Positions 8,792 through 62,137 of a DNA stretch of 64,000 nt are shown here, in pieces. The translations under genes were made by a program, and so were the position numbers. Location: positions 118,869 through 182,868 of the forward strand of contig CAZXWN010000001.1 in NCBI GenBank assembly GCA_964644695.1. Reading direction: 5' to 3'. The stretch's first letter is position 1. Each line of letters opens with the position of its first letter. This stretch comes from an uncultured bacterium (GTDB taxonomy: Bacteria > UBP4 > UBA4092). The notes below the pieces were generated by a model. That model searched no databases and was not told where the DNA came from. It saw only the letters and a list, made by a program, of their open reading frames with translations.

Positions 8792-8870
8792 TGGTCGGGG
8801 CGAGCCGATTCGAACGGCCGACCTCTCGCACCCCAAGCGAGTGCGCTAAACCAGGCTGCGCTACGCCCCG
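8792..8870 (-). tRNA. tRNA-Pro (anticodon GGG)
   Basis: The reverse complement folds as a cloverleaf: acceptor CGGGGCG/CGCCCCG, D-arm GCGC..GCGC, anticodon stem CTCGC/GCGAG with loop TTGGGGT (anticodon GGG), T-arm GGCCG-TTCGAAT-CGGCT, and an encoded CCA. Confidence 0.85.
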
Positions 8871-19865: not shown

Positions 19866-21758
19866 TTAATTGCGTAGCTGATTAGCTTTAAGAGCTTCCT
19901 GGTCAGCTTTCCAATTATCTCCAACTGAGTGGTAAAAGTTGGAGAGTAATTGATGATATTCTGGTTTAGTTGGATATAGATCACAAGCTGCTTTGTAATT
20001 GGTTTCGGCTTGGAGTAGATTTCCTGATAACTCATAAGCCTTGGCTAAATCAGCTCTTAAAAAAGCCGTCTTAGGATTCAGTTCTACGGATTTTTTTAGA
20101 ATCGGAATCCCTTGTGCAAAATCGCCTAAACTGACCAAAGTATTCCCTAAATGTTGTTGGTATTCAGATTGATTAGGCATATTCTTTACTGCTTTTTGAA
20201 ACGAATCAATAGAGCTTCTAATTTCACCAGTACTGAGTCTGTTTTGTCCTTGCATGAAATACACTTGAGCTTTGAAATTGGGTAATACCCAACCTAAAAG
20301 ATAAATGGCCATAATCAAAATCAGAGAGGGTGTAATAATTAAAAACCAGGTGTTAGGTTGCCGTCTCCATACAATATCCCATGGTCCCGGTTCAGGCACA
20401 AACTCAGCCTGACAGGCTGAATATAATCCACCCAAAACAATGCAGCCAATCCAGAATAAATCCTTCCAATAAAAACCAAACCCCACGAATGAGTCTGTAA
20501 AAAAGGCGGCTGTGGCTGCGTAAAAAATAACGAATTGAAGTTGGACATCAGGTCTGGTTAATTTGCGCCATCTCAAGAGTGGCCAGATCAAGACGGTTAA
20601 AAATAATACTGAGAATCCAATGCATTGGAATATGCCACCTTCCACCCATGTCTGGATAAAGGTGTTGTGAGCATATCTGGTTTCACCTACACCGACTGGT
20701 TTATATTGTCCATATATAGTACCGAAATTTCCTAAACCCGCTCCTAATATGGGACGGTCTTTAATCATGTCCATTGACATGGACCAGTAATTAATACGTT
20801 CTTGTGTTGTAGACTGACCGGATTTGATACGATTTGTGATTGACTCATTTTTTTGTGGGGCGGGGGATTGATATTGACAAACAATAAATATAACTAATAT
20901 TCCCAAAAGACTGGTTGTGAACCACACCTTCATCTGGAGTAATTTCTTCTTGTCTATAAGAATTGCAAAGATAACTAATGCGATGATTGTCGCCAGAATT
21001 CCACCTCTGGATGCACTCAGTAACAAGCTGGTTCCCATCAGAGCTATGGACAGAGTCGTGAGAATCTTTTTTTGCAGCGAGCATGTGTCGAATAGATAAC
21101 CCATTGCTAATGGAATACAGATTGCCAATAAGAGGGCAAATAGGTTGGGATTTCCAAATGTTCCTGTAACACGATGGGATTCGAGTGTGAATTGAATCCC
21201 AGACAGAATCCGAGGGCTTAGTTCTGTTTGCACTTGGGGAAGCAGAGCCAATTGTTGATTGAATTGGAAAAGATACTGATAAAGTCCAATGATTGCCTCA
21301 AACGCACCAACCAGAACTAATACTCCAATCAAAGTGAAACGAAATTTTCTCTGAGGATACTCTGTTTCCAATTCATGTTCGTGCAGGGTTTTTAACTGAT
21401 GGTTTGCGGTTAATAAATAGGTGATAAATCCCAATAATAGAATATTCCATGATTGGAAACTGTTGTATCGATAGACTGAGCTTAGTAAGCCAAAAGAAGA
21501 TAAAACAAGAAATGCACTGAATGCCAGGGTGATTGGATTATATCTTTGAATTTTCCATTGGAATCCTTTTCTTCTGACTGTTTGATACAGAAGAAGCATC
21601 ATCAGGCAACAGGGTATTACAAAAGTTAATGTGGGCGTGATATCAAAGGGTACTAAAGCGATTAATCGGGGATAGATAGCAATGATGCTAAGTAATAATA
21701 GGCTGACATGAAATAATTCATTCATTGGACATAGTTTCCTTATCAGATGATAATTCAC
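19866..21758 (-). CDS. Polytopic membrane protein with an O-antigen ligase (Wzy_C)-like domain and C-terminal TPR repeats
   Basis: About 10 TM helices and an SRGG motif typical of O-antigen polymerase/ligase. The C-terminal 180 aa are TPR-like. The true start is probably Met-12 (about 21725), reducing the overlap with scpB. Confidence 0.55.
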   Translation of the reverse strand: MNYHLIRKLCPMNELFHVSLLLLSIIAIYPRLIALVPFDITPTLTFVIPCCLMMLLLYQTVRRKGFQWKIQRYNPITLAFSAFLVLSSFGLLSSVYRYNSFQSWNILLLGFITYLLTANHQLKTLHEHELETEYPQRKFRFTLIGVLVLVGAFEAIIGLYQYLFQFNQQLALLPQVQTELSPRILSGIQFTLESHRVTGTFGNPNLFALLLAICIPLAMGYLFDTCSLQKKILTTLSIALMGTSLLLSASRGGILATIIALVIFAILIDKKKLLQMKVWFTTSLLGILVIFIVCQYQSPAPQKNESITNRIKSGQSTTQERINYWSMSMDMIKDRPILGAGLGNFGTIYGQYKPVGVGETRYAHNTFIQTWVEGGIFQCIGFSVLFLTVLIWPLLRWRKLTRPDVQLQFVIFYAATAAFFTDSFVGFGFYWKDLFWIGCIVLGGLYSACQAEFVPEPGPWDIVWRRQPNTWFLIITPSLILIMAIYLLGWVLPNFKAQVYFMQGQNRLSTGEIRSSIDSFQKAVKNMPNQSEYQQHLGNTLVSLGDFAQGIPILKKSVELNPKTAFLRADLAKAYELSGNLLQAETNYKAACDLYPTKPEYHQLLSNFYHSVGDNWKADQEALKANQLRN

Positions 21759-22533
21759 TGTCTATTTCAGGTTTGGATTGTTCATTAATGTCAGTTTCTG
21801 ATTCAATTTTATCTTGATTATCAATCATGTCGGAATCCGCGGTGATGTTTGTTTCAGAAGCAGAATCTATCTTATCCTCACTGGACTCTATTGCATCATT
21901 GACATTATTTTCAGATTCAACAGGGTGAATAGTGCTTGGAATAGTCTTCAGTGCTTCCATGTCAATGATATCCAAATCCTCAGTCCCTGAATTCTCCGAT
22001 TCATCATCCATTAATTCGTCAATTGTGGGTAAGTCATTTAGATTTTTTAATCCAAACTGGTCCAGAAATTCTGTTGTTGTTCCATAGAGCAGGGGACGTC
22101 CTAATACATCTTTTCGCCCTACGACTTTGATAAGTCGGCGTTCCATCAAGGTTTGCAGGACCGCTCCACTATCAACACCTCTGATGGCTTCAATTTCTGC
22201 TCGAAGCAGAGGTTGTTTATAAGCGACGACAGCCAAAGTTTCAATGGCTGCTTTCGTAAGTTTTAAGTTTTGCTTGGCAATAACAAGTTTCTGGATATAA
22301 GGTGCAAACTGAGGTTTTGACGTGAGACGGTATCCATGCGCTATTTCAATCAACTGAATACCTCGTCCAGAATTATCAAGATCGTCCTGCAGTTCTCGTA
22401 ACCATTGTTTGAGGACTTTATCCTCCAAATTACTGTCAATTATGTCTTTAATTTGTTTTAAAGTTAAAGGATCTCCACTGATGAACAGAAGAGATTCAAT
22501 AATTGGTTTAACTTGTTCTGATGTCAGTTCCAT
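21718..22533 (-). CDS. scpB: Segregation and condensation protein B with a long acidic Ser/Asp/Glu-rich C-terminal tail
   Basis: N-terminal IIESLLFISGDPLTLKQI and tandem winged-helix ScpB domains. About 95 extra low-complexity acidic residues at the C-terminus. Confidence 0.8.
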   Translation of the reverse strand: MELTSEQVKPIIESLLFISGDPLTLKQIKDIIDSNLEDKVLKQWLRELQDDLDNSGRGIQLIEIAHGYRLTSKPQFAPYIQKLVIAKQNLKLTKAAIETLAVVAYKQPLLRAEIEAIRGVDSGAVLQTLMERRLIKVVGRKDVLGRPLLYGTTTEFLDQFGLKNLNDLPTIDELMDDESENSGTEDLDIIDMEALKTIPSTIHPVESENNVNDAIESSEDKIDSASETNITADSDMIDNQDKIESETDINEQSKPEIDSELSSDKETMSNE

Positions 22534-22649
22534 AATGTCATTTCTCTATTTTCGATGCTGAAGGCTAGGGTAAAGTCTAAATTCTAGCAAGGAACACTCA
22601 CCCTGACAAATCGAATAATGATTGAAAAGGTTAATGTTACAATCTTTAT

Positions 22650-23846
22650 ATGCAATGGATTGCCGATTTACACCTACATTCCCGATTTTCAATGGCTACG
22701 AGTCGGGATTTAAATATTCCGAATATTGCCAGAGGATGTCATCGAAAAGGGATAAATCTGGTCGGGACAGGAGATTTAACTCATCCTGTATGGCTTGATG
22801 AAATTGAAGCGGTTCTGGAACCGGCTGGGCCCGGTATCTACCAATATCAGGGTATTCATTTCATTTTATCCGGTGAAGTAAGCCAGGTTTACAGACAAAA
22901 TGGGAAGGCACGACGAATCCACAATCTTATATATGTGCCGGATTTTAAAACGGCCAGAGAATTAAACCGTCAACTGGATAAATATGGGAAGCTTGCCTCG
23001 GATGGGCGGCCAACACTTTCACTGGATGGTATGTCGCTTGTAAAACTCTGTAAATCCATAAACCCTGATATTGAGATTGTACCTGCCCATATTTGGACAC
23101 CCTGGTATGCTTTATTTGGTTCAAAATCAGGATTTAATTCATTCGAAGAGTGCTTTGGTGATCAGGAAGAACATATTCATGCTGTTGAGACAGGATTATC
23201 CAGTGATCCTGAAATGAATTGGCGTTGGTCAAAACTGGATAGAATGACTTTGATATCCAATTCGGATGCTCATTCTCCCTCCAAGTTGGGTAGAGAAGCT
23301 AATTTATTAGAGTCCCCAGTTAATTATCGACAGTTATTTGACACGATATACGGGCGGGGTCCGGGTCAATTTAAAGGGACTATTGAGTTTTATCCTGAAG
23401 AAGGAAAATACCATTGGGATGGTCATCGTGCCTGTGGAATTTGCTTGATGCCCGCTGATGCTGAAAAATTGGGGAATATCTGTCCCGTATGTGGGAAACC
23501 ATTAACTTTGGGAGTGTTACACCGAATCAATGATTTATCTGACCGTGAAGAAGGTTTCCAGCCCAAGAATCGACCGAGTTTTGAACGGTTGATAGACTTA
23601 CACAGTTTGTTGGCTGAAGCCATGAGTAAGCCTGTTGCCAGTAAGGCTGTGCAACAGGAATATGACCGGATGATATTTGAATTTGGATCGGAATTTTACA
23701 TACTCCGGGACTTGCCCGAAAAAGAAATGGACCGAATCTCCATGAAAGTTCGTGAAGGACTGATGCGGATTCGACAGGGAAATATTCAAGTTAAACCTGG
23801 ATTTGATGGCCAGTTTGGTGTTGTATCTATTTGGAATGGTAAATAA
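22650..23846 (+). CDS. PHP-domain protein of the endonuclease Q (TIGR00375) family
   Basis: N-terminal DLHLHSRFSMATS...KGINLVGTGDLTHPVW matches the EndoQ PHP metal-binding N-terminus. A C-terminal Cys4 zinc finger (CGIC...CPVCG) is present. 398 aa. Confidence 0.5.
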   Translation: MQWIADLHLHSRFSMATSRDLNIPNIARGCHRKGINLVGTGDLTHPVWLDEIEAVLEPAGPGIYQYQGIHFILSGEVSQVYRQNGKARRIHNLIYVPDFKTARELNRQLDKYGKLASDGRPTLSLDGMSLVKLCKSINPDIEIVPAHIWTPWYALFGSKSGFNSFEECFGDQEEHIHAVETGLSSDPEMNWRWSKLDRMTLISNSDAHSPSKLGREANLLESPVNYRQLFDTIYGRGPGQFKGTIEFYPEEGKYHWDGHRACGICLMPADAEKLGNICPVCGKPLTLGVLHRINDLSDREEGFQPKNRPSFERLIDLHSLLAEAMSKPVASKAVQQEYDRMIFEFGSEFYILRDLPEKEMDRISMKVREGLMRIRQGNIQVKPGFDGQFGVVSIWNGK

Positions 23847-23850
23847 TCTA

Positions 23851-24615
23851 CTATTGGGGTGGCAGGGCTCTGGTGAAAAATGTTTTCTCTCGTATCACTT
23901 TTCCCTTGTCAGTAAAATACTCGTTATTATAATTAACACCTTGAGTGGATTTTTGACTGCTCCAATATTTGAAGCCGATGACATTGGATTTCCCATCTTT
24001 TAGCCATTCAATAAAAACCGCCGAATGTCCAGACCCAGGTGTTCTCCAAAATTGAACAAAATCACCTGGCTTAACCTCTCTCCAATCATTGATGATATAG
24101 CCAAGCTTGTAAAATTCTAATGCGTCCCCAGGTCCTGGTGATTCTTTATAGGTGCAAAACCACCTGTTCTTAAAATCCGGGAATTTACTGACAGGCAACT
24201 TGGTTAAAGGTGTTTTTACTTGATAGGACGTTTGGGTTGTGTCTGAACTGATAGATTGTGAATCCATTAATTGAGAGTTTTCTGTTGAATGTTGATTCAA
24301 ATACAAATCCGCCGCTCTTATATAGACTTCTAAAGTTAATCCACAACAGAAAGTATTCATCCTGCTGTTTCCATTCATGACGGTAACTCCGTCATAAATG
24401 ATGTCCTTGGAAGATCCATCATAGGGTTCCCGTTTAGAGGGGTCTCTATCCCAGGAATACATAAATCGACCATCTGTGGGATATGATTTTACGATTTGGA
24501 GAATGGCATCATTCATAGTATTTATCCGTTTCGTAGTGATGACATGCGCAGGTTTTGCCAATCCTGATATTATCAGAGACAGTGTTATTAATAATGTAAT
24601 AAGGATATATTTCAT
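23851..24615 (-). CDS. Secreted hypothetical protein (possible Cys/His hydrolase fold)
   Basis: Signal peptide MKYILITLLITLSLIISGLA. 254 aa. A Cys (FCCGLT) and a His (GSGHSAVF) lie in conserved-looking contexts. No confident family. Confidence 0.35.
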   Translation of the reverse strand: MKYILITLLITLSLIISGLAKPAHVITTKRINTMNDAILQIVKSYPTDGRFMYSWDRDPSKREPYDGSSKDIIYDGVTVMNGNSRMNTFCCGLTLEVYIRAADLYLNQHSTENSQLMDSQSISSDTTQTSYQVKTPLTKLPVSKFPDFKNRWFCTYKESPGPGDALEFYKLGYIINDWREVKPGDFVQFWRTPGSGHSAVFIEWLKDGKSNVIGFKYWSSQKSTQGVNYNNEYFTDKGKVIREKTFFTRALPPQ

Positions 24616-28320: not shown

Positions 28321-28510
28321 TATTTTAAGCAAATATCTACATAAAAGTAGCAAGTGCATATATTGACAAAAATCCTGTTTTCGATGAATATTGTTTTGGC
28401 TGACCATTTCAGGTGATGGAATGGAATTTAGTGAAAAGGTGGTGAGTATGTATATGTATTCAATTAGCCAATTAATTCAATATAGTCATCGTTTAAAAAG
28501 GAGAAACATT

Positions 28511-29551
28511 ATGAGGAAGTTATTGTTTTTAACAGTATTTATAATTTGTGGCTTTTCATTTTCTGCAACTTTGACGCAATCATGGTTGGTTTCCACAACA
28601 TCAGGCACTTCACAGGGTGTTGGTGCTGGTATTGTTTTGATGGATGCCGGTAGTGCTCTTAGAGGTTTTGATTTTTCTACAACCGAAAGTAAAGTGTTTT
28701 TGGCTTCTGGTACTAATATATATGTTATTAATTCTAATGATGGTACAACTACAGGGAATGGCTATAATCAAAACGGGCAAGTTGATGTTACCGGAGCTTC
28801 TGGCGGAACACGCGTAATCAATAAAGTGAAAGTAGCAGACGATGGTGCTATTTACGCCTGTAACTTACAAACAGCTATTGCAACCGGTGCGTTAAAGATT
28901 TATCGCTGGGCAACTTCATCATCATCAATCTCTGTGGCCGTCAATACTACAATTTCTGGACTTCCGGTTGCTAGATATGGTGATTCTTTAGGTGTTGTTG
29001 GTTCTGGTGTTAATACTGAAATATATGTGAGCGGTTCGGCACAGACACGAATCTTGAAATTTACTACGACAGATGGTGTCAATTTTACTCTTGCTACTAC
29101 TATTGCTGTCACAGCAAATTACGGTGGTACAGATATTGCTCCAGTTGCTGTTAATGGTAATTTATGGGTCAGTGGTAGTGGTGTATTAACATATAAAATT
29201 AACCAAAGTGGCACCGTTCTTGAGACTATACCAGGAACTGTAGCCGCTACTGGATGGCCTGTATCCATGATTGCTAAAGCAAAAAGTGGCAAAACCTATA
29301 TTCTGAAAACTCCAGGAAATACAGCTGGTGCAAAAGTAGGTAATTTGATAAATGTCACGAGTGGTGCATCTTCCGCAACAAATGACTATCAGACTCCTAC
29401 CATAGGTTCAAATGCAAATACTAATGCTACAGCTGCTGCAGCATATGATTCACTGACGGATTCAGTATATTTTATGATTACAAATAATGGATATGGGAAA
29501 TATGGAGATGCAACCTTACCGGTTGAACTAAGTGGTTTTGAAACAGAATAA
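28511..29551 (+). CDS. Secreted Gly/Thr/Ser-rich repeat protein ending in LPVELSGFETE
   Basis: AAGGAG RBS 7 nt upstream of ATG 28511 (track ORF is 28391..29551). Signal peptide (LLFLTVFIICGFSFSA). 346 aa. Shares the C-terminal motif. Confidence 0.5.
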   Translation: MRKLLFLTVFIICGFSFSATLTQSWLVSTTSGTSQGVGAGIVLMDAGSALRGFDFSTTESKVFLASGTNIYVINSNDGTTTGNGYNQNGQVDVTGASGGTRVINKVKVADDGAIYACNLQTAIATGALKIYRWATSSSSISVAVNTTISGLPVARYGDSLGVVGSGVNTEIYVSGSAQTRILKFTTTDGVNFTLATTIAVTANYGGTDIAPVAVNGNLWVSGSGVLTYKINQSGTVLETIPGTVAATGWPVSMIAKAKSGKTYILKTPGNTAGAKVGNLINVTSGASSATNDYQTPTIGSNANTNATAAAAYDSLTDSVYFMITNNGYGKYGDATLPVELSGFETE

Positions 29552-29555
29552 TTTA

Positions 29556-29598
29556 ATTAAAAACTCCCTGTTGCCCATGGGTAACAGGGAGTTTTTTT
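29556..29598. terminator. Bidirectional intrinsic terminator between convergent secreted-protein genes
   Basis: 10-bp stem actccctgtt / aacagggagt, palindromic 10-nt loop, A5 upstream and T7 downstream. Confidence 0.65.
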
Positions 29599-29601
29599 AT
29601 T

Positions 29602-31254
29602 CTATTCGGCAAGAAAATCTGATAATGATATGGGTACAGTAAACCCTATTATTTCATCTGCACCGGGCCAGCAGGACATGGCTCGGGTTTCCCCATCAAA
29701 GTCCAATATACACTCATCTAATCTGTTGACAGGTTGTATTGCAGGTGTTTCAGCACTTCCTGAGAAATGCAAGTCAGTTGTAGATATCCAGCTCCCTGGA
29801 GATGTGCTTAATGGATCAATAAATTGGCTGTTTATATCACAACCGGATAGCGTCTGCCATTGGGAAAGAGTCGATACTTGTTGGGTGGTTAGTTGTCCCA
29901 ATAGAGCATTATTTTCTGTATAAATAACATTGTTGTCTGAAGTAAAACTTCCACCACTTCCTAGTTTGTATATAACAGCCATCCCTGGATGTGATGTTCT
30001 AAATATATTATTTTTAATAATTGCTTTTCCCGTAAAACTACTGCTGGTTAATCCTAATATATAACACTTGCTTGCTGGAAGGTTTCCGGTCAAAGAAGTG
30101 GTTTGATTACACATATTTATCGAATTGTTCAAAATATAGTAATTAAAATTTGCAGATCCCAGCCGAAGCGCAGAATATGCAACTTCAGCTGCAGTACTTC
30201 GTAATACCCAGTTTTGGGAACTAATTATATTATTTTTGACGATGAAATTAGTGTTTCCAGTGGAAGTTCCAAAAAACTCGACTGCCCAAACTCCATTGGA
30301 TGCGATGGTATTTTTACTTGATAAAACATCAAAAACACAGGAATCAATTACTGTTGTCAGGTTTGTATAGGATGTGGCTATATAACTAATCCCTACACAG
30401 TCATATCCTGATGTATTTTGGTTAACTCTTATCGTTGAGTTTGATATGGTTCCCCAGTAGGGATAAGTGATAGAAATACCATGTTTTCTTCCACAAATTA
30501 ACGAGTTTTTTATCGTCATTCCTGACATTGGAATTAGTGAGTCAGGAGAAGCGGAAGTCCTATACTCAACAGCACTTCCCGTAATGCTATTCATAGCTGA
30601 AACAAGAACACAATTATCTATTAAACCGTTATCAGGTATGCATTCAACACTGGATACTTTTCGGGCAGTAAAAGCAATTGCTGCCGAAGTAAGAGTTGAC
30701 GATGTTTGATTAATTATGGAGCAATTTTTAATTATGGTGTTATCGCAGTCTCCATAAACATGAATAACTCGGATATGATTTCCTGAACCAGAATAGATAA
30801 TTGATAAAAGATTAACGGATGTATCATCAGAAGGCGAACCATCAATAACAAAATTGTCAGTCTTAATCAGTGAATTTTCATTTGCATTCTGAGACGCACC
30901 AATTACAATGCTTCCCGGGATACCTGATGTATATGAATGATTAAAGGTGATGGTCTTTTTTGTTCCGTTTGTAGGACGAATAGTTATCTTATGCCCATTA
31001 GTATTTTTCCCAAAATAACTGGCAATTGCTTCAGTCAGGTCTGAATCAATATATATTGTCCAATCTCCCTGACATCCTCCAGCATAGTTATTAAAGTCAG
31101 TTGATGCTGAATACAAGCTAGGATAATCAGAGTTCACCCCTCCTACAGTTGATGATCCCAATCCACCTATTTCACTGAATCGACCAGCTTGGCTTTGGGA
31201 TAAAGTTAATGATAATAGAATCCCTAATACAACAAAAAAACGGTTTAAAAACAT
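29602..31254 (-). CDS. Secreted right-handed parallel beta-helix repeat protein (pectate-lyase-like fold) ending in VPISLSDFLAE
   Basis: Signal peptide MFLNRFFVVLGILLSLTLSQSQA. Repeated N-x-(I/V)-x-x-(N/S/D) beta-helix rungs (for example NNIISSQNW, KNNIF, NCSIINQT). 550 aa. Confidence 0.5.
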   Translation of the reverse strand: MFLNRFFVVLGILLSLTLSQSQAGRFSEIGGLGSSTVGGVNSDYPSLYSASTDFNNYAGGCQGDWTIYIDSDLTEAIASYFGKNTNGHKITIRPTNGTKKTITFNHSYTSGIPGSIVIGASQNANENSLIKTDNFVIDGSPSDDTSVNLLSIIYSGSGNHIRVIHVYGDCDNTIIKNCSIINQTSSTLTSAAIAFTARKVSSVECIPDNGLIDNCVLVSAMNSITGSAVEYRTSASPDSLIPMSGMTIKNSLICGRKHGISITYPYWGTISNSTIRVNQNTSGYDCVGISYIATSYTNLTTVIDSCVFDVLSSKNTIASNGVWAVEFFGTSTGNTNFIVKNNIISSQNWVLRSTAAEVAYSALRLGSANFNYYILNNSINMCNQTTSLTGNLPASKCYILGLTSSSFTGKAIIKNNIFRTSHPGMAVIYKLGSGGSFTSDNNVIYTENNALLGQLTTQQVSTLSQWQTLSGCDINSQFIDPLSTSPGSWISTTDLHFSGSAETPAIQPVNRLDECILDFDGETRAMSCWPGADEIIGFTVPISLSDFLAE

Positions 31255-33617: not shown

Positions 33618-33694
<77 letters not shown>

Positions 33695-33708
33695 ATTGCA
33701 ACTTCAAG

Positions 33709-33743
33709 TCCCATGTTAAATAGTTATTAACATGGGATTTTTT
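33709..33743 (+). terminator. Intrinsic terminator immediately after tRNA-fMet
   Basis: 11-bp perfect stem tcccatgttaa / ttaacatggga, 7-nt loop, then T6. Confidence 0.65.
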
Positions 33744-33765
33744 AATGAATAATACTGGTAACTGA

Positions 33766-33794
33766 TTGACAGTAAATTGCGTCCTTGGTAGAAT
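33766..33794 (+). promoter_or_regulatory. Sigma-70-type promoter for the tRNA-Met and tRNA-Leu unit
   Basis: TTGACA, a 17-nt spacer, then TAGAAT (same architecture as the fMet promoter). Confidence 0.5.
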
Positions 33795-33841
33795 TTTCTT
33801 TCTACTGCCGTTGTAAACTAAAGCTGTAGAGGCTTATGTGT

Positions 33842-33917
33842 GGCGGGATAGCTCAGTTGGTAGAGCAAGCGGTTCATACCCGCTGTGTCGGGGGTTCAAA
33901 TCCCTCTCCCGCTACCA
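33842..33917 (+). tRNA. tRNA with CAT anticodon (elongator tRNA-Met, or possibly tRNA-Ile2 needing lysidine)
   Basis: GGCGGGATAGCTCAGTTGGTAGAGCAAGCGGTTCATACCCGCTGTGTCGGGGGTTCAAATCCCTCTCCCGCTACCA. Cloverleaf with anticodon loop TTCATAC. Confidence 0.85.
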
Positions 33918-33952
33918 TTTATATTGAAAACCTCGTTATTTATACCTCCCTG

Positions 33953-34037
33953 GCCCGGGTGGTGGAATTGGCAGACACGTACGTTTGAGGGGCGTATGGA
34001 GCAATCCGTGCGGGTTCAAATCCCGCCCCGGGCACCA
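33953..34037 (+). tRNA. tRNA-Leu (anticodon GAG), class II with a long variable arm
   Basis: GCCCGGGTGGTGGAATTGGCAGACACGTACGTTTGAGGGGCGTATGGAGCAATCCGTGCGGGTTCAAATCCCGCCCCGGGCACCA. Anticodon loop TTGAGGG, 14-nt variable arm, encoded CCA. Confidence 0.85.
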
Positions 34038-37707: not shown

Positions 37708-39096
37708 ATGAAATGTCTTGTTTATTTAGGAGAACATGATACAGCCTGGGCATATCCGTATTTCAAGAAACTTCATCCGGCTATGCTCAATATTTTGAAT
37801 CGTCCTTATATTGATCATTTGTTGGATTTTTTGTGGGGTAATGGGTGTCAGGAAGTTCGGCTTATTTTAGCTAAACCCTCTCCCATGTTAGAAACTCGTT
37901 TATTCGATAGTCATTCCCATAAACTTAAATTAAGTTTTGGATTAGCACAGCCTGAGGATGACTTAGATCATATTTTTCTGAAAAATTGGTCTTTTTGTAA
38001 AGACACAAAATTATTAGTCATTAAAGGCTTTCCCTATTTAGCGGGTACCTTCGAGAGTCTGCTTGAATCAAATAAAGAGTGGGTAATCACAGAAGGTAAA
38101 ACTCGTATTTATTTCATTAACTCCCCCAATACTACTGCAGTCAATTTTAACCGTATCGAAACTGTATTTGTACCCGAGTCTTTAATTGTTTATTCAATTG
38201 ATTCACTGAAAAATTATTATGATTTATGCATGACCCGGTTATCTCTTCTTTTGAATGTGGAATCGAAAAAAGGGGTGTTGAAAGGAATTCAGGTTAATAT
38301 ACCCAAAAACAGTCGATTGGTTGCTCCCACTCTTTTAGGAAATCATTTGTATTTACATAAGATGACACTTATTGGTCCAAATGTTGTGATTGGAAGACAT
38401 GTGAGAATTGATTCGGGTACGAGCATCAAAAACAGTATTGTTTTTAATGATACCTATATTGGTCAGGATTTAGAAGTTAAGAATAAAATTGTTTTTCGGG
38501 ATAGGCTGATTGATCCCATATCCGGAGACATAGTCCACTTAGTTGATTCACGATTAATTGCACGATTGGAAGTTGAAAAAAAACACATCATTCGTCGGAG
38601 ACTTTTCCATATATTTTGGGGAGTGGTCTGGGGAATTGTATGGCTGATTCCGATGCTCCTTATTCATTCCGTATATATATTCTCAAAGAAACAGAACCCG
38701 AAAGAGTCCTTTTATGTAGACCATAACAGGACTCGTATGCTATTTCCAAAGTCTCTCGTAGAACCTGATTCCGGGATAGAGAAGATTTATTATCGTCTAT
38801 CGGGTGACAAATATAGATTGTTACCTGCTGTGCTAAAAGGACATATTGCGTTGGTGGGGCACCAGATGTTAAACATTAATCCAGAAAATTCACGTTATCT
38901 GGATGAACTCCCTTTTTATATCCCTGGAATATTCAGTCTTCCTGAAGCAAACGGTGTATTTGGTCAGAAAGAGCAGGCAGTGGTTGATGAGTTATATTAT
39001 AGTCGTCATTTTTCAGCCGGGCTTGACATGAAAATATTAGTAAAACAGTTGTTACGTCGTTTGTTTGTACCGTGGTCAAATGTTGAGGAGGATTAA
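37708..39096 (+). CDS. Fusion of a degenerate sugar-nucleotidyltransferase-like domain, a left-handed beta-helix, a reentrant/TM segment and a PglC/WbaP-type polyprenyl-phosphate phosphoglycosyl-transferase (Bac_transf) domain with altered catalytic residues
   Basis: N-terminus KKLHPAMLNILNRPYIDHLLDFL..GCQEVRLI aligns with NTP_transferase, but the GGxGTRL loop is replaced (GEHDTAWAYPYF). Hexapeptide repeats at 210-265. Hydrophobic reentrant segment RRRLFHIFWGVVWGIVWLIPMLLI. C-terminus LSGDKYRLLPAVLKGHIALVGHQ aligns with PglC [23 protein letters not shown], and IPGIF/DMKIL with PGITG/DLKI. Asp-Glu becomes Asp-Lys, and PRP becomes HQM. Confidence 0.55.
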   Translation: MKCLVYLGEHDTAWAYPYFKKLHPAMLNILNRPYIDHLLDFLWGNGCQEVRLILAKPSPMLETRLFDSHSHKLKLSFGLAQPEDDLDHIFLKNWSFCKDTKLLVIKGFPYLAGTFESLLESNKEWVITEGKTRIYFINSPNTTAVNFNRIETVFVPESLIVYSIDSLKNYYDLCMTRLSLLLNVESKKGVLKGIQVNIPKNSRLVAPTLLGNHLYLHKMTLIGPNVVIGRHVRIDSGTSIKNSIVFNDTYIGQDLEVKNKIVFRDRLIDPISGDIVHLVDSRLIARLEVEKKHIIRRRLFHIFWGVVWGIVWLIPMLLIHSVYIFSKKQNPKESFYVDHNRTRMLFPKSLVEPDSGIEKIYYRLSGDKYRLLPAVLKGHIALVGHQMLNINPENSRYLDELPFYIPGIFSLPEANGVFGQKEQAVVDELYYSRHFSAGLDMKILVKQLLRRLFVPWSNVEED

Positions 39097-45003: not shown

Positions 45004-46641
45004 TTAATTCTTTAATAGCTGGTCTCTAATTAATTGGATAGGTAAACTTCCAAACGAAAGCAGTCGATCATGGAATTCCTTCAGATTGAATTGCTCACCT
45101 CTAACCTTCTTGTATTCATTTCTCAAATCTAATATGGCCAGTTTTCCTGCCAGGTAGCTCATAGGTTGGGTTGGACTTTGAGAATATCGCTTCACTTCTG
45201 AAATAGCGTTTTCTTTTTCCAATAATGCCGTCTCAACTAACATCTTGACAGCATCATCAATAGTCATCTCTCCTGTGTGTAACTGTACATCAATTACTAC
45301 GCGACATGCACGCCAAAGAATATCTTTTAATTGGAGAAGCCGGGTTTTGGGATCAGTATAAAATCCCTGTTCCCACATTAGTTCCTCACAATACAAAGCC
45401 CATCCCTCAATAAAAACATTTGTTCCAAGTATGCGCCTTATCAAAGAGGAATTTTTGTTTGCATGTGAAAATTGTAAATGATGTCCAGGATAACCTTCAT
45501 GGGCTGCTGTAATGGGAATGCTGAAATTTGAATGTCCCTTTAACTGTTCTTCCTGTTGTTCCGGGGAAAGTTGAGTATTAACGGGTGTGACCCAGAAAAG
45601 CCCTTCCTGACGGTCTTCAAAAGGTGCTGGAGGCAAATAAGCCGCATAAGGAATGGTATGTCTTTCAAATGCTGGAGTTTCGGTGACAGATAATGTTTGA
45701 TTTTCTGGAATACTAACTAATTCTTTTCGTTGAATAAACTCAAGACATTCTTCCATTTGATTTTTATAAGTATTAATGAGCTCAATTGACTCTGGATGCT
45801 CAGTTTTACATTCTTTAACGAGAGTTTTCCAACTTACGGTTGAGTTAATGAGCCGTCCTATTTTATAAAGCTTTTCTTGTGTTTCTTGTATTTGTTCATT
45901 ACCCAACTCAAGTAGCTTTTCTGTGGTGTAGGGCAACATATGTTCTTTATCTAACAATAATTGAAATAATGTTTGACCCAATGCAAAGCGGCCATCTGAC
46001 CGAGGTAGTAATTCTTCTTTCAGAAAGGTCAGGTATTGTTCAAAAGCAACTACAGCTTCATTACAGGCAATGATAAGTTCATCTTTTAATTCGGGTGTTT
46101 TCACAGCAAAGTTTGGCACAGCCTGTTGGAAAAACTGTAGTCCGCTTTCAGTTATTTCGATCCCCATTTCTGTCCATACTTGAGGAATATTTGTGCCCTG
46201 ACTAAGATTGTCTTTGCCTTCCTGCATTAATCGTGGCAATTTTTTTAAACGTGCGAGCAGATTCCGAGACCTTTCTTCAATGGGAGCAAAGTCTCTAATC
46301 ATTAGTATGAAACAACCGGATAAGGCTATTTGTGGATAAACTGTAGCATCTCTGAGTATTTTCTGATGATTCTTTGTAAACTCTATATCAACATAAAGAT
46401 TGTTTTTTAGAAGAGCCAGGTCTATCTGTTCATCATTACCAAGATCGTATTGATTCAGTGCTTCCTGCAATCTGTTGTAAAAAGATTCTTTGATTGATAA
46501 AGATTTTTGCCGGGATTCCTTGTCATATAAATCAATTTCTGAATCGAATTTATGAATGCCCATAAATGTGGCGCTTATGGGACTGTCTTGCCAGAAGAAG
46601 TCTAATATTTCATTTATAAGCGATTGATTTTTATAATCCAT
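45004..46641 (-). CDS. DUF885 family protein (putative metallopeptidase-like)
   Basis: The HEGYPGHHLQ motif (HExxPGHH) is characteristic of DUF885. 545 aa. Confidence 0.55.
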   Translation of the reverse strand: MDYKNQSLINEILDFFWQDSPISATFMGIHKFDSEIDLYDKESRQKSLSIKESFYNRLQEALNQYDLGNDEQIDLALLKNNLYVDIEFTKNHQKILRDATVYPQIALSGCFILMIRDFAPIEERSRNLLARLKKLPRLMQEGKDNLSQGTNIPQVWTEMGIEITESGLQFFQQAVPNFAVKTPELKDELIIACNEAVVAFEQYLTFLKEELLPRSDGRFALGQTLFQLLLDKEHMLPYTTEKLLELGNEQIQETQEKLYKIGRLINSTVSWKTLVKECKTEHPESIELINTYKNQMEECLEFIQRKELVSIPENQTLSVTETPAFERHTIPYAAYLPPAPFEDRQEGLFWVTPVNTQLSPEQQEEQLKGHSNFSIPITAAHEGYPGHHLQFSHANKNSSLIRRILGTNVFIEGWALYCEELMWEQGFYTDPKTRLLQLKDILWRACRVVIDVQLHTGEMTIDDAVKMLVETALLEKENAISEVKRYSQSPTQPMSYLAGKLAILDLRNEYKKVRGEQFNLKEFHDRLLSFGSLPIQLIRDQLLKN

Positions 46642-46725
46642 GAGATTCCTCGTGATAACGTTTAATGAAAGAATAACATAAATTGACTTGTCCGATTGAA
46701 ACCGTTTATTCGATAATGATTCACT

Positions 46726-48300
46726 ATGTTTGAAGAAAATAAACTTATTCTATATTCTCGCAAAAACTTATGGGTTTTGGGGTTATTATTATTTTTATTC
46801 ACAATTGGATTGGTTTATCTTCCTATTCATACCCATTCTTTAACTACTGACGAAGTAGGGGATATCTCAGTTGGTTATGCACAGGCAAGGTATGGTTTAT
46901 ATTTCCTGGATCCTGCTAATCCCCCGTTGATTCGAATGATATATGGAACTGTTGTTGCCTTATGTGAGCCTCTGTCATATAAGGGACCTGAAGTAGAGCT
47001 GATGGATTTTTTCTATTATTCGCGGATGTTCTTTGATTTTAATAAAAGCAGTTTAATTACACTGACCGTTATTTCCCGATATGTTGTTGTCGGACTTATG
47101 CTGCTGACGGGATTTATTCTGTTCAGGTGGGTAAAACAACTTTATGGGATAACTTCAGCGTACATCTCATTTTTCTACTTTATTTTGAATCCAAACGTAT
47201 TAGCACACGGGACGTTGGCAACACTTGATATGGGATTAACTTTTACCTGGTTATTCTATGGTTACATTTTACATAAATGGATTGGAGAACCTGATAAAAA
47301 AGTTAATACTATTTTATTGGGGCTCTCTCTTGGGTTTTGTTTGACGGCAAAATTTACTTCAGTGATTCTTATCCCTTTGACTTGTTTGGTGTTACTATGT
47401 GATCGTTCCTGGATTAAACAGTTTAATGTTAAGTCTGCATTCCTTCATAGCGGTATATTTCTTTTATCTATGTGGATGACTATTTTAGCGGTATATCGTT
47501 TTCATAATATCCAATATGGTTTGCCTTATTGGTTTGTTACGGGGATTAAATTACAGATAAACGATGCAGGTACATATTTCACTTACCTTAATGGAAAGAT
47601 TAGCCAGAGTGCCCCCTGGTATTATTACCTTGAAGCCATTCTCCTTAAGAATCCAATACCTTTTCTTATTGTGATGGTGTGGGGGATTTTCTCAGCATCA
47701 AAACAGAAACTCAAAATGAGCAGGGATGTTTTAATTAGTTTGGTATTTATTGGAGGACTGTTAATCGTCTTTTCTCTATCCGGCAAAAAAATGCTGGGTA
47801 TTCGTTATCTTCTTCCCATGTATCCCTTTATTGCACTTCTAATAGCTCGCCTATTTCATACACAACAACACTGGAAATATCGAACCCACATTCATCTACT
47901 GATGTTGATCGGATGTTTAATATCTACTCTGTCTATAAATCCTCATTATTTGTCATATTTCAATATCATTGCAGGTGGGCCAAGTAAAGGTCATCGTTAT
48001 TTACTGGATTCAAATTTAGACTGGAGCCAGGATACGCTGCGTCTAAAGGAATACATGTATGTAAACAATTTGGATTCCATATATTTTGTTTATTCAGGAT
48101 ATTTGATGCCAGAGGTGTATGGTATCCAGACATATCCTCTCTATGACGATACTGTTAAAGGTATTGTGGCGATTAGTGTGAATCGGTTATATGGGATACA
48201 GGCTGCTTCACCTGAATATATTCATCAATATGAGTGGTTAAAAAATAAAAAATATCTGGGACGTGTAGGATACTCAATATGGTTGTATGATACAAGATAG
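46726..48300 (+). CDS. GT-C fold glycosyltransferase (ArnT/PMT-like, family 39/83-like) polytopic membrane protein
   Basis: An early periplasmic-loop DE motif (TTDEVGD), at least 11 TM helices, and a soluble C-terminal domain. 524 aa. Confidence 0.5.
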   Translation: MFEENKLILYSRKNLWVLGLLLFLFTIGLVYLPIHTHSLTTDEVGDISVGYAQARYGLYFLDPANPPLIRMIYGTVVALCEPLSYKGPEVELMDFFYYSRMFFDFNKSSLITLTVISRYVVVGLMLLTGFILFRWVKQLYGITSAYISFFYFILNPNVLAHGTLATLDMGLTFTWLFYGYILHKWIGEPDKKVNTILLGLSLGFCLTAKFTSVILIPLTCLVLLCDRSWIKQFNVKSAFLHSGIFLLSMWMTILAVYRFHNIQYGLPYWFVTGIKLQINDAGTYFTYLNGKISQSAPWYYYLEAILLKNPIPFLIVMVWGIFSASKQKLKMSRDVLISLVFIGGLLIVFSLSGKKMLGIRYLLPMYPFIALLIARLFHTQQHWKYRTHIHLLMLIGCLISTLSINPHYLSYFNIIAGGPSKGHRYLLDSNLDWSQDTLRLKEYMYVNNLDSIYFVYSGYLMPEVYGIQTYPLYDDTVKGIVAISVNRLYGIQAASPEYIHQYEWLKNKKYLGRVGYSIWLYDTR

Positions 48301-53997: not shown

Positions 53998-54843
53998 CTA
54001 TTCCTGATTTTCTGAAGGGATGGAAATAATTGGCTCAGAATTTGAAGTGTAATGAGATTGATTTAGCTGCTCAACCATTTCTGAAACGGTTTGAGAGGGT
54101 CCATTCCCATTAAGTGATTTTCCATAGATTGATTGCCAGCTGGATATCAGGAAATCTGCAAAACATTTTGGCTGTTTAACGGATAGATGTTTTAGTCGGC
54201 ACATTTCAAGTACTGCTAGCACGGTACAGACTAACTCAACCCGATTCTTGGTGTCTTTTCGTAGCTGACTGAAATAAAGATGCTCATTTTCCTTTATTAA
54301 AGCGTTGATGAGATCAATCTTCATTTCAACAGTGTACTCTTCAAGTTCAACTTCCCGAACCGTAGGTGCCTCTGTGAACCGTGCATATTTCTGGAATGCC
54401 AATACCAAATCATTGAGTGTTGCATTCACGGGTATTTCAGAAGGATTATCAATCTGCGGCAGAGGTTCTTTGCGTGTGTATAACAATTGGCGGTCTTCAG
54501 CACACTCCCATAAAGTCTCGCCCAGCAGTTTATATTTCTGATATTCTTCAAGTTTTTGCTTGAGTTCTTCTTCCGTTTGTTCCAATTCCGCTATTTCTTC
54601 AGGAGTTTGCGGTTGGGGGAGCATCCTCTGTGTTTTGATATAGATAAGGGTGGCCGCAATGACCAAAAATTCACCCGCTACATCCAAATCCATTTGCTGC
54701 ATGTTTCGGATGTAGCTCAGGTACTGAGATGTTATCTCTGATAGTGAAACATTGTAGATATCTAATTCATTCTTACGAATTAAATATAAAAGAAGATCAA
54801 ATGGACCTTCAAAGATATCTACCTTGACCTGATAATTCGGCAT
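53998..54843 (-). CDS. scpA: Segregation and condensation protein A (kleisin)
   Basis: N-terminal FEGPFDLLLYLIRKNELDIY is the canonical ScpA start. 281 aa. Confidence 0.8.
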   Translation of the reverse strand: MPNYQVKVDIFEGPFDLLLYLIRKNELDIYNVSLSEITSQYLSYIRNMQQMDLDVAGEFLVIAATLIYIKTQRMLPQPQTPEEIAELEQTEEELKQKLEEYQKYKLLGETLWECAEDRQLLYTRKEPLPQIDNPSEIPVNATLNDLVLAFQKYARFTEAPTVREVELEEYTVEMKIDLINALIKENEHLYFSQLRKDTKNRVELVCTVLAVLEMCRLKHLSVKQPKCFADFLISSWQSIYGKSLNGNGPSQTVSEMVEQLNQSHYTSNSEPIISIPSENQE

Positions 54844-56528: not shown

Positions 56529-56607
56529 ATTGTATAAGTATCCAATTTAGTTAGTCGTTGAAATAATATCTTACTATAAAGATATGCTTAGTAGGGTTGA
56601 AATGATG

Positions 56608-58937: not shown

Positions 58938-61016
58938 TTATCTGGCTTTATTCCTATAGGCATTTGCTTTGGTTTTGGCTGCCTCAGCGGCGTCTGTTTC
59001 ACCAGACATACTATAAAGCATATATAAATTTACCCAACCTTCATAACTATCAGGTCTGATTTTGACTGCTTTCATAAAACATTTTTCTGCAATAAGGAAC
59101 TGATTTTGTGTTGCATAAGCTGCTCCCAGGCTTATCCATGCATCATGGGATATTGGATTCAACTCGAGAGCTTTTTTAGCTTCTTGAATAGCCATCTCGG
59201 GAGAGCGGCAGATATTAGCCCAGATTGCTCTCTTGAGATAAGGGTCAACATACTCCGATTCGTAAGAGGAGGCCTGAATGGATTCATTAAAAGCAATATT
59301 CCAGTCTTGACGCTCTGCTGCAAGTATGGAGAAGTTATTACGAATCTGGGCAAAAGGATGAATATCTCTAATAATAACGGGGTAGGGTGAAACTCCTGTT
59401 GCCGGATCAAGTTCATTTACCCATTGATTCCAATTCATAGTTGAAGTGTAAGAATAATTAAACTCTTCACTCGAGATTCCTTCAGGAGTAAGACGGGCCC
59501 ATAACCCCGAAGGAATTGCCTGTACAATCCAGCGATTCCCTTGTATCAAGCTGTATTCAGCAAATACAGGCCTGTTTTTTTGAAGAGCAGCAGTGATGAT
59601 GGATGGGTTAATCTTTTGGCGGTTAATGCTGACAATTTCAATCTTTGGCCGCGCCCCTTTTATTTGCTGCTGATATAACAAATTAAAATCAATATAGACT
59701 GAACGAACTAATACCAGTGAATTATCGGGAAGTTGTTTTAATAAAATCTGTCCAAACCGGTCAGGTGCTCCATTTGAGATATGTTTAATAACATTCCATG
59801 ATGAATTAACCTGCCATGCCCAAAGCCCAGTCAAAATAAAAAAAGTGATCCACTGCCAACTAACAGCCAGTGGGATCTTATAAGTAGGACATTCAAGTCT
59901 TTCTGCCAGCCATATACCAAAACGAATGATTGCATAAATCCCCAGTGAACATAAACCACCCCACAGATAAATAGAGGGAAGCAAGAATGATGGGAATTCA
60001 GGTTCAATGATTTCGGAGTGTCCATAGAAAACGGCCATCCCAATATTTGTCAAAATAATTAAAATTGGGAGAGAAGCCATAATTGCTTTGCGGCGGATAA
60101 TATATGCGAGTCCACCCAAACCGAGAGCAATTCCCCATGGCTTAAAAGTCATGAGAAATACTTTGCCTGTTTCAAAAATAAAATATCGAACTGCAATCCA
60201 AGACCGATTAAATACCTTTTCATGGAACTCCGCCTGGCTTAAGTATCCCCACAATGCCTTGGAGGTGGTCAATGAAATGCCGTGATGAAGTACTGGGTGA
60301 GTTGAAGAACGAATAGGAAGATAAAGCGTTACCAGAAAGCCAAGGAAAAACAACCCAGGAATAGCTGTTAACCAGGTTCTTCCTTCAGGGGATTTCCATG
60401 GTCTTGTATATAAAAGTATCAAAATAAAAGATGGAAAACAGATAATCATTTGGGCATGGACGGTTAATCCCAGTCCAAGGATAAAAGCTGCAAATGAAAG
60501 ATATTTTCCCTGCTCGGTAGAAGATTCTGAGCTCAGAACTTTAACCAGCGTCCATACAAAAGACCCAATAAAGAAAAGGTTGAAAGTATAAATTTCAGCA
60601 ATAACTGACTGCGACCAATATATCTGTGTAAAAGCCAAACCCAGTAATCCGAGACTATATCCAATCCATCTGGCAAATGGATATAAAGTGGTGGGAAGAA
60701 AATTACGGTTTATTAAAAACAGCCAGTAGAGAGAAACGGCTCCAGCAATAGCAGAAAAGAAGTTGACACAAACTGCCGTATTACTCAGGAAATCGGGAAT
60801 TGTGAATAATTTACCTAAAAGTAAATATAAGGGAAAACCTGTTGGATGGGGTATTCCCAATTCTTTAACAGCCGTAATTAATTCACCACTGTCCCACCAA
60901 TATAAAGAGGGGCAAAGTGTTCGTATGAAAACGAATAACGCAGTAAGGACAATTAAGAACCCTGGCCAATCTCTGTTGAAAACTTTCAATATATTTTGTT
61001 TATTGAGTTTTTTCAT
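58938..61016 (-). CDS. DUF2723-family polytopic membrane protein (GT-C-like) with C-terminal TPR repeats
   Basis: N-terminal YWWDSGE motif, about 11 TM helices, and C-terminal TPR repeats. 692 aa. The start overlaps the mutY stop by 4 nt. Confidence 0.5.
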   Translation of the reverse strand: MKKLNKQNILKVFNRDWPGFLIVLTALFVFIRTLCPSLYWWDSGELITAVKELGIPHPTGFPLYLLLGKLFTIPDFLSNTAVCVNFFSAIAGAVSLYWLFLINRNFLPTTLYPFARWIGYSLGLLGLAFTQIYWSQSVIAEIYTFNLFFIGSFVWTLVKVLSSESSTEQGKYLSFAAFILGLGLTVHAQMIICFPSFILILLYTRPWKSPEGRTWLTAIPGLFFLGFLVTLYLPIRSSTHPVLHHGISLTTSKALWGYLSQAEFHEKVFNRSWIAVRYFIFETGKVFLMTFKPWGIALGLGGLAYIIRRKAIMASLPILIILTNIGMAVFYGHSEIIEPEFPSFLLPSIYLWGGLCSLGIYAIIRFGIWLAERLECPTYKIPLAVSWQWITFFILTGLWAWQVNSSWNVIKHISNGAPDRFGQILLKQLPDNSLVLVRSVYIDFNLLYQQQIKGARPKIEIVSINRQKINPSIITAALQKNRPVFAEYSLIQGNRWIVQAIPSGLWARLTPEGISSEEFNYSYTSTMNWNQWVNELDPATGVSPYPVIIRDIHPFAQIRNNFSILAAERQDWNIAFNESIQASSYESEYVDPYLKRAIWANICRSPEMAIQEAKKALELNPISHDAWISLGAAYATQNQFLIAEKCFMKAVKIRPDSYEGWVNLYMLYSMSGETDAAEAAKTKANAYRNKAR

Positions 61017-62137
61017 AACTTGCTGACATTATTCTCCTGTAACCATTTTACGATGGGTTGATCTGCTGCCGGAAAAGCATATTTACTTAACTGCTTTGGA
61101 GTTACCCATTTAAAATCGTCCACTTCAAGTTTTTTTACGGTTCCTTCCAATATGGAGCAAAGATAAAAATGGATAGTGACTGTGAAGTGGGAATAACCAT
61201 GGTCAATAGCCATTATCTTTGATTCTGTTTTGACGATAATATCTAATTCTTCCTTTAACTCTCTAACCAGACATTGTCTCAGGGATTCTCCCTGTTCCTT
61301 TTTTCCTCCAGGGAATTCCCATAATCCACCCAGAAGTCCCTTGGCAGGTCTTTGGGTGATTAATACTTTATCATGACAATGGATGACTCCGGCCGAGATG
61401 ACTTTATGAGGTAGTTTCCGGCTGAGTTTGCGATAGGGGATGACATCTGTTAATCCCGAAGCATTTGCCACGCAATATTTTGACAGTGGGCATACTGTAC
61501 ATTGTGGTTGTCGGGGAGTACAGATAATTGCTCCCAATTCCATCAGTGATTGGTTAAAATCTCCCACTTTGTCGGAACCTGGTAATAGTTGTTCAGAAAT
61601 ATTCCATAACCTTTTATTTATTTCTGATGATTTGGGATCCTCTTGAATTCCGAATAATCGAGTAAGGACCCTGATGACATTTCCATCCAAAACTGGCATC
61701 CGGTGACCGAAAGCGATACTTCCAATAGCCCCGACGGTATATCGGCCAATTCCGGGTAATTGTTTTATTTCATCGGGAGTCGTTGGAAAACAGTTGGAAA
61801 AGTTATCCCGAATTATTATTGCAGCCTTGTGAAGGTTTCTCGCTCTTGCATAATAACCTAAGCCTTCCCAATGTTTTAGGACAACATCCAGTCGAGCGTC
61901 AGCTAAACTTTTTACCGTAGGAAATCTTTTCTTGAATTTCTCAAAATAGGGGATGACGGTTGTTACCTGGGTTTGTTGTAACATGATTTCAGATATCCAG
62001 ATCAAATAGGGATCCTTCGTGTTACGCCACGGCATGGACCGTTTCGATTTATGATACCAATCCAACATCTTATTCTGGATAGTATGGATTTTTCGTGTAT
62101 TTAAAGTGGATAATTTGTCTTGTGTTTCTTCAGGCAT
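61013..62137 (-). CDS. mutY: A/G-specific adenine DNA glycosylase
   Basis: HhH-GPD domain, Fe-S cluster Cys ligands (CTPRQPQCTVCPLSKYC), and a C-terminal NUDIX-like domain. Confidence 0.8.
   Translation of the reverse strand: MPEETQDKLSTLNTRKIHTIQNKMLDWYHKSKRSMPWRNTKDPYLIWISEIMLQQTQVTTVIPYFEKFKKRFPTVKSLADARLDVVLKHWEGLGYYARARNLHKAAIIIRDNFSNCFPTTPDEIKQLPGIGRYTVGAIGSIAFGHRMPVLDGNVIRVLTRLFGIQEDPKSSEINKRLWNISEQLLPGSDKVGDFNQSLMELGAIICTPRQPQCTVCPLSKYCVANASGLTDVIPYRKLSRKLPHKVISAGVIHCHDKVLITQRPAKGLLGGLWEFPGGKKEQGESLRQCLVRELKEELDIIVKTESKIMAIDHGYSHFTVTIHFYLCSILEGTVKKLEVDDFKWVTPKQLSKYAFPAADQPIVKWLQENNVSKL

Follow-up and report, generated by a model that had tools for sequence, protein, structure and literature searches.

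The endoQ locus and its surroundings

The window, by which we mean the whole 64-kb stretch of DNA that was analyzed, contains a complete open reading frame (ORF) of the endonuclease Q (EndoQ) family that starts with ATG and encodes 398 amino acids followed by a stop codon. Its amino terminus is MQWIADLHLHSRFSMATS...KGINLVGTGDLTHPVW, and both this terminus and the coordinates assigned to the ORF in the initial annotation match the ORF listing exactly. The gene, the three domains of its product and the features around it are collected in Table 1. The two neighbors that had been named, scpB and a gene for a secreted protein, are both present, the second yielding no family match in NCBIfam and Pfam profile searches, and mutY, which had been placed 38 kb away, was found at close to that distance. 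No partner repair gene was found beside the EndoQ ORF within the 64-kb window, and no UvrD gene was found in the window.

Table 1. The endoQ-family gene, its encoded domains and neighboring features, in window coordinates
Feature	Position	Strand	Basis or remark
Complete endoQ-family gene	22650..23846	+	ORF listing, phmmer, TIGR00375, AF2 model, Foldseek
PHP catalytic domain, residues 1-248 (Pfu 1-238)	22650..23393	+	Residue mapping onto PfuEndoQ
Zn-binding domain, residues 249-315 (Pfu 239-303)	23394..23594	+	Ligand positions H259, C262, C278 and C281 at nt 23424-23492
C-terminal helical DNA-binding domain, residues 316-398 (Pfu 304-382)	23595..23843	+	Pfu alignment, helices in model
scpB	21718..22533	-	Score above TIGR00281 cut-off; divergent from EndoQ ORF
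Divergent intergenic spacer, 116 bp, common to scpB and EndoQ	22534..22649	.	Gene coordinates, sequence
254-aa protein with signal-peptide-like N-terminus (MKYILITLLITLSLIISGLAKP)	23851..24615	-	Convergent with EndoQ ORF, 4 nt apart
mutY	61013..62137	-	About 37 kb from EndoQ ORF

The GC content near the EndoQ gene is 0.41 and that of other parts of the window 0.33-0.42, so the gene is matched to its flanks. The other genes of the window are bacterial housekeeping genes (scpA, nrdR, trpS, valS, htpX, degP, aroC, aroE, sodB, tkt, mutY and mazG), and EndoQ itself stands in a housekeeping setting of scpB, degP, htpX, pullulanase and transketolase. The ValRS encoded in the window is 62-64% identical to entries titled 'MAG: bacterium' and about 58% identical to Desulfuromonadia, the best named matches.

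Several further observations were made along the window. The genes scpA and scpB lie side by side in many bacteria; here scpA (53998-54843, minus strand) is about 31 kb from scpB, and the window ScpB has an acidic, Ser/Asp/Glu-rich C-terminal extension of about 95 residues past the 186-position TIGR00281 profile. ARAGORN called a tRNA-Pro(GGG) of 79 nt at 8792-8870 on the minus strand, with the anticodon at position 37. At its gathering score the Rfam tRNA model missed this call but recovered the three remaining tRNAs (33618-34037); the call could be an unusual tRNA or a spurious one. ORFs of 222-733 amino acids in 28391-31254, 37708-39096, 45004-48300 and 55860-58809 had no NCBIfam match at the thresholds used and are lineage-specific proteins; the longest of them, of 733 amino acids (56608-58809, minus strand), lies upstream of a 692 amino acid TPR protein and mutY.

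The spacer between scpB and endoQ is, from its position and sequence, the presumed promoter region of both genes. A consensus scan for promoters and terminators around the EndoQ gene returned 8 sites compared with 5.6 +/- 2.0 in shuffled sequence, which is no excess, and within the spacer it returned only a minus-strand site (for scpB) and no plus-strand promoter site. No Shine-Dalgarno sequence is visible upstream of the endoQ ATG. A TACAAT hexamer that is absent from the list of scanned sites occurs at 22638-22643 on the plus strand, 6 nt ahead of the ATG, and no -35 element matching it was found. With this hexamer near the start codon and no Shine-Dalgarno sequence, the endoQ mRNA could be leaderless.

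Family identity from sequence and structure

The proposal that the ORF encodes an EndoQ homolog was supported by sequence comparison, by fold and by the conserved metal and catalytic residues described below. Among PDB sequences, PfuEndoQ (5ZB8, and 7K30-7K33 in complex with DNA) aligned with the window protein in a phmmer search with an E value of about 1e-57, residues 5-394 pairing with Pfu 5-382 at 35.6% identity. An AF2 model of the window protein, built on 52 homologues, was confident (pLDDT 92.5, pTM 0.91). [quoted passage not shown]

The sole NCBIfam match was TIGR00375 (E=7.6e-53, profile positions 2-372 of 374). An HMM search against this model had been suggested as a check on the family assignment. 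It was the only family matched, and over its full length; the score was 180.2 bits, where the curated cut-off is set at 326.6 bits. TIGR00375 is an NCBIfam hypothetical equivalog, and the tested proteins of the bacterial clade fall below its cut-off because the model is centered on archaeal proteins. Eight other members of that clade, taken from Omnitrophota, Acidobacteriota, WOR-3, Aerophobetes, Dictyoglomaceae and Ruthenibacterium, scored 162-212 bits, and Pfu scored 430 bits. The score therefore assigns the window protein to the bacterial EndoQ clade, or the wider EndoQ family, and not to the strict TIGR00375 equivalog.

The window protein is a typical member of the bacterial EndoQ clade, being 44-58% identical to hundreds of its members. 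Our Pfam profile search with the window protein gave no match; PF27218 (MJ0043_C) is on record for the clade in precomputed annotations only. The assayed proteins closest to it are PfuEndoQ and the Bacillus EndoQ; the assayed B. pumilus and B. subtilis enzymes presumably belong within the bacterial clade, a placement that we assumed. NCBI already names the clade 'endonuclease Q family protein', and standard annotation would label the window protein in that way.

The PHP domain and the lesion pocket

Two sources supplied the residue roles: the PfuEndoQ structure of Miyazono et al. 2018 (PMC5961232) and the account of Shi et al. 2021 given in PMC8307549. Conservation was assessed in an alignment of the window protein with its 120 closest homologues (n=121). 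A resemblance to the PHP metal site had been noted at the N-terminus, and the alignment with Pfu bears this out, with all ligands and catalytic residues conserved. The six metal ligands of Pfu (H8, H10, E76, H84, H139 and D193) correspond to H8, H10, E76, H91, H147 and D206 of the window protein, and the essential R114 and H195 of Pfu to R120 and H208; all eight positions are invariant in 121 of 121 sequences. Serine 14, which in Pfu replaces the third-metal site, is also S14 in the window protein and is invariant in the clade alignment. The window protein differs from Pfu in this region by a 7-residue insertion after E76.

The lesion pocket is conserved to a similar degree. Pfu residues T142, E167, G169, L170, S171 and N191 are matched by T150, E180, G182, L183, S184 and N204, each invariant in all 121 sequences, and the ETGLSSD pocket motif found in the window protein is invariant in the bacterial clade. 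The only pocket difference between the two proteins is at Pfu L168, which is T181 in the window protein; at this position the base is contacted through the main chain only (PMC5961232, PMC8307549). The wedge residue W144 of Pfu is represented by W152, a position occupied by tryptophan in 97, histidine in 22 and tyrosine in two of the 121 sequences. Mutations that reduce or abolish PfuEndoQ activity have been described at H8, H10, E76, H84, R114, H139, W144, G169, L170, D193 and H195 (PMC5961232), and by residue mapping every one of these residues is kept in the window protein. The steric gate of PfuEndoQ, H139/G169/S171 (PMC8307549), is likewise conserved.

The zinc site

The window protein contains four cysteines, C262, C265, C278 and C281, of the kind that the initial annotation had read as a Cys4 finger near the C-terminus. 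The cysteines are present, but they sit about two-thirds of the way along the protein, and the homologous site has a different composition. In an ungapped alignment anchored on GKYH and CPxCG, the Pfu ligands C249, C252, C268 and C271 pair with H259, C262, C278 and C281, and the spacing of 16 residues between C262 and C278 is identical to that between C252 and C268 of Pfu. H259 is invariant (121/121), and position 265, which is mostly arginine, is cysteine in only 16 of the 121 sequences. A finger made of C262, C265, C278 and C281 is disfavored by the invariant H259, the non-conserved C265 and the spacing identical to that of Pfu.

On these grounds we predict from the alignment a His-Cys3 zinc site in the bacterial EndoQ clade, in contrast to the C4 site of Pfu. 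The window protein shares this predicted H-C-C-C site with its clade and differs from Pfu in having His at the position of the first zinc ligand where Pfu has Cys. Histidine is a competent zinc ligand. In the window protein, C265 could in principle stand in as a ligand.

The C-terminal domain and the missing clamp-binding tail

Residue K332, in the C-terminal helical domain, is the equivalent of the DNA-binding K320 of Pfu and is not invariant in the clade. The window protein ends in ...GVVSIWNGK and does not contain a Qxx[LF]F clamp-binding motif; it thus differs from Pfu, which carries a C-terminal PIP box and a disordered tail, and from the bulk of its own clade. A C-terminal Q-x-x-[L/F]-F (QLSLF, QLGLF, QMTFF and similar), the beta-clamp-binding consensus, is present in about 110 of its 120 closest homologues. 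A beta-clamp-binding motif of the QLxLF type in bacterial EndoQ was previously pointed out by Shiraishi et al. 2016 (PMC4858679), who also describe Methanomicrobiales EndoQ without a PIP box, and because of the latter the clamp motif cannot be taken as defining the family.

The convergent gene downstream leaves no space for an EndoQ tail, the two stop codons being 4 nt apart. The tail is also missing in the nearest relatives of the window protein, P0001 (98% identical), P0003 (58%), P0006 (54%) and P0017 (53%), and in five further homologues that are 48-53% identical (P0002, P0005, P0007, P0015 and P0075). The window EndoQ does not have the beta-clamp-binding tail, so it probably acts untethered from the sliding clamp; the parallel with the PIP-less Methanomicrobiales proteins likewise suggests, by analogy, a clamp-independent action. 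A more far-reaching and rather improbable proposal is that these proteins form a clamp-independent EndoQ sub-clade that has lost the tether of archaeal EndoQ (PIP box) and of most of its closest bacterial homologues (QLxLF) and kept its divergence from scpB, so that EndoQ might be co-regulated with SMC-ScpAB and might survey the chromosome without relying on the replisome.

Distribution of EndoQ in bacteria

A word-indexed search returned at least 8000 clusters of homologues at 90% identity, distributed over many phyla, and an exhaustive search of 50%-identity representatives returned 3380, 2143 and 983 clusters at E values of <=1e-3, <=1e-10 and <=1e-30, respectively. In GTDB representatives, homologues 44-53% identical to the window protein were present in Omnitrophota, WOR-3, Desulfobacterota, Patescibacteria, Bacillota, Latescibacterota, Aminicenantes and 'Micrarchaeota' metagenome-assembled genomes (MAGs), and the scan of these representatives found none closer than 53%. 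EndoQ had been described as patchy in bacteria, which is an understatement for a family so widespread in uncultivated phyla. Because genes of this kind occur commonly in uncultivated bacteria and already receive the EndoQ name, the one in the window is an ordinary find.

At five loci (L011, L050, L055, L073 and L077), the EndoQ homologues of the 'Micrarchaeota' (DPANN archaea) MAGs are of the bacterial and not the archaeal type, with 47-48% identity to that of the window. These could be due to horizontal transfer from bacteria or to an error of binning or labeling.

Many bacterial EndoQ proteins are longer than that of the window. At least 600 amino acids were found in 140 of the best 150 50%-identity representatives (P0241-P0390). 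Seven longer proteins were scanned for additional domains, and in five of them a UvrD/REP helicase (PF00580, PF13361) follows an EndoQ module of about residues 1-413; the helicase domain is absent in P0249 (777 amino acids) and P0002 (538 amino acids). These EndoQ-UvrD fusions, of about 1000-1200 amino acids, are 45-52% identical over their N-terminal 410 or so residues to the full-length window protein. They differ from it in that UvrD/REP domains follow a low-complexity linker with an internal GQxxLF, while the window protein stands alone. The fusions explain why database entries are often named 'DNA helicase UvrD', and they would support a pathway of nicking followed by unwinding in bacteria. 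The published description of three families by domain organization may already include them.

About 25 of 80 GTDB-representative loci place an EndoQ homologue inside a pyrimidine operon, on the same strand, in the order pyrR-pyrB-pyrC-EndoQ-pyrK-pyrD-pyrF (L001-L006, L008, L010, L014-L016, L018-L021, L024-L027, L029, L030, L044, L045, L047 and L059). All of these loci are titled as Omnitrophota or 'uncultured Planctomycetia' MAGs. The slot filled by EndoQ is the one taken by pyrAA/pyrAB in the B. subtilis operon. Our literature searches found no mention of EndoQ within a pyrimidine operon. The arrangement may link incision at DNA uracil to the supply of pyrimidine nucleotides, or it may be one arrangement inherited within one phylum.

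Selection, inheritance and alternative explanations

Codons were compared with those of a sister strain (Logan SRR24236060, locus L081). The two EndoQ genes differ by 24 synonymous and 8 non-synonymous changes and are 97.0% identical in nucleotide sequence, compared with 94.9% across the shared 21-kb region; endoQ is under purifying selection. Gene order was also kept in more distant relatives. The order DegP, histidine kinase, Wzy_C/TPR, ScpB divergent from EndoQ and, farther on, pullulanase is repeated at a locus whose EndoQ is 54% identical (L083), and the order EndoQ, small unknown gene on the minus strand and pullulanase is repeated where EndoQ is 58% identical (L082). With gene order kept and purifying selection acting, endoQ has been inherited vertically and has long resided in this genome; it is not a recent acquisition or a passenger of a defense island.

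These results bear on an alternative in which the protein has the fold and chemistry of EndoQ but serves mainly in a role other than housekeeping repair, either restricting phages with uracil-containing DNA, as has been suggested for Bacillus EndoQ, or acting on a set of lesions that is different or more limited. A proposal that bacterial EndoQ serves against viruses is cited in the review PMC8307549, which also notes that the phage inhibitor Ugi does not affect B. subtilis EndoQ. The missing clamp tether is also compatible with a non-repair role, as are the two positions, Pfu L168 (Thr in the window protein) and the first zinc ligand, at which the clade departs from the archaeal proteins. Against a role in defense, PADLOC models gave no match for the EndoQ protein or for four neighboring proteins of unknown function, and the housekeeping context, which is kept in the relatives with 54-58% identical EndoQ, is unlike that of a mobile defense island. 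The lesion-pocket side chains are all identical to those of Pfu. We consider this explanation unlikely.

The protein might instead be another kind of PHP phosphoesterase, such as a histidinol phosphatase, a PolX-type enzyme, a 5'-3' exoribonuclease of the RNase AM/YciV type or a nucleotide phosphoesterase, that resembles EndoQ at its metal site only. The metal motifs are common to PHP families, the Pfam profile search was empty, and the position of the Omnitrophota homologue in a pyrimidine-nucleotide operon could hint at a nucleotide substrate. However, the match to EndoQ spans three domains, including the Zn-binding and helical DNA-binding domains that are absent from other PHP proteins, and TIGR00375 was the only NCBIfam model to score; histidinol phosphatase (HisJ), PolX PHP, RNase AM/YciV and TrpH gave no NCBIfam or Pfam match. 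The next-best Foldseek matches after EndoQ were PHP phosphoesterases (TM0559, 2ANU; BAD_1165, 3E0F; RNase AM, 7UG9), which share the PHP barrel and its binuclear metal site; only the barrel aligned, with TM scores of 0.29-0.38. They also keep the third metal site, the ligands of which, in nucleotide phosphoesterases, are replaced in the window protein by S14 and R120, as in Pfu. A closer match to another PHP subfamily had been named in advance as the result that would speak against EndoQ; other PHP structures align at a TM score of 0.38 at most, over the barrel alone, and therefore none is the better match. This explanation is very improbable and, on current evidence, effectively refuted. Just as improbable is that the gene is a remnant, either decaying or without catalytic function, a reading suggested by the missing C-terminal tail and the score under the family cut-off, since the ORF is intact with start and end aligned with its homologues, the catalytic residues are all present, synonymous changes outnumber non-synonymous ones by 24 to 8, and the tail-less form is kept in relatives 50-58% identical.

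Proposed activity and biological significance

The sequence and the structural model make it highly probable that the product of the gene is a functional bacterial endonuclease Q in stand-alone form, that is, a base-flipping, metal-dependent PHP endonuclease that would cut immediately 5' of the lesion. We infer its metal binding, substrate range, downstream steps and physiological role as follows. The PHP domain would hold two Zn2+ (or Mn2+/Mg2+) ions through H8, H10, E76, H91, H147 and D206. Duplex DNA would be bent within the cleft formed by the three domains, with W152 inserted as a wedge, and the damaged nucleotide would be flipped into a tight pocket made of H147, T150, E180-S184, N204 and D206. 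This pocket is predicted to admit uracil, hypoxanthine, xanthine and an abasic sugar and to exclude thymine and adenine sterically. Hydrolysis of the phosphodiester bond directly 5' of the lesion would leave a nick, after which the damaged stretch may be cleared by a flap or 5'-3' exonuclease working with a helicase or a strand-displacing polymerase, and a ligase would seal the gap. B. pumilus EndoQ is reported in the literature to have the same activity in vitro.

A functional analogue is Endonuclease V (Nfi), likewise a lesion-specific endonuclease, with which the repair of deaminated bases begins independently of a glycosylase (PMC5961232). It differs in having an unrelated, RNase H-like fold and in cutting the second bond 3' of the lesion, whereas EndoQ cuts directly 5' of it. 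An alternative repair route for deaminated bases in this organism, as the initial annotation suggested, is a reasonable possibility; it would depend on whether ung, nfi and xth are present in the genome outside the 64 kb covered here.

Reviews present EndoQ as an archaeal enzyme that occurs in 'a few bacteria'. The homologues described here form, in contrast, a large bacterial clade in which the zinc site is predicted to be His-Cys3, fusions to UvrD are frequent and, among Omnitrophota, EndoQ has a fixed place in the pyrimidine operon. These are features of the clade as a whole and are not specific to the window, and the clamp motif at least has already been published. For the organism itself, EndoQ is an unsurprising entry in the repair inventory, one that is predicted to provide glycosylase-independent incision at uracil, hypoxanthine and abasic sites.
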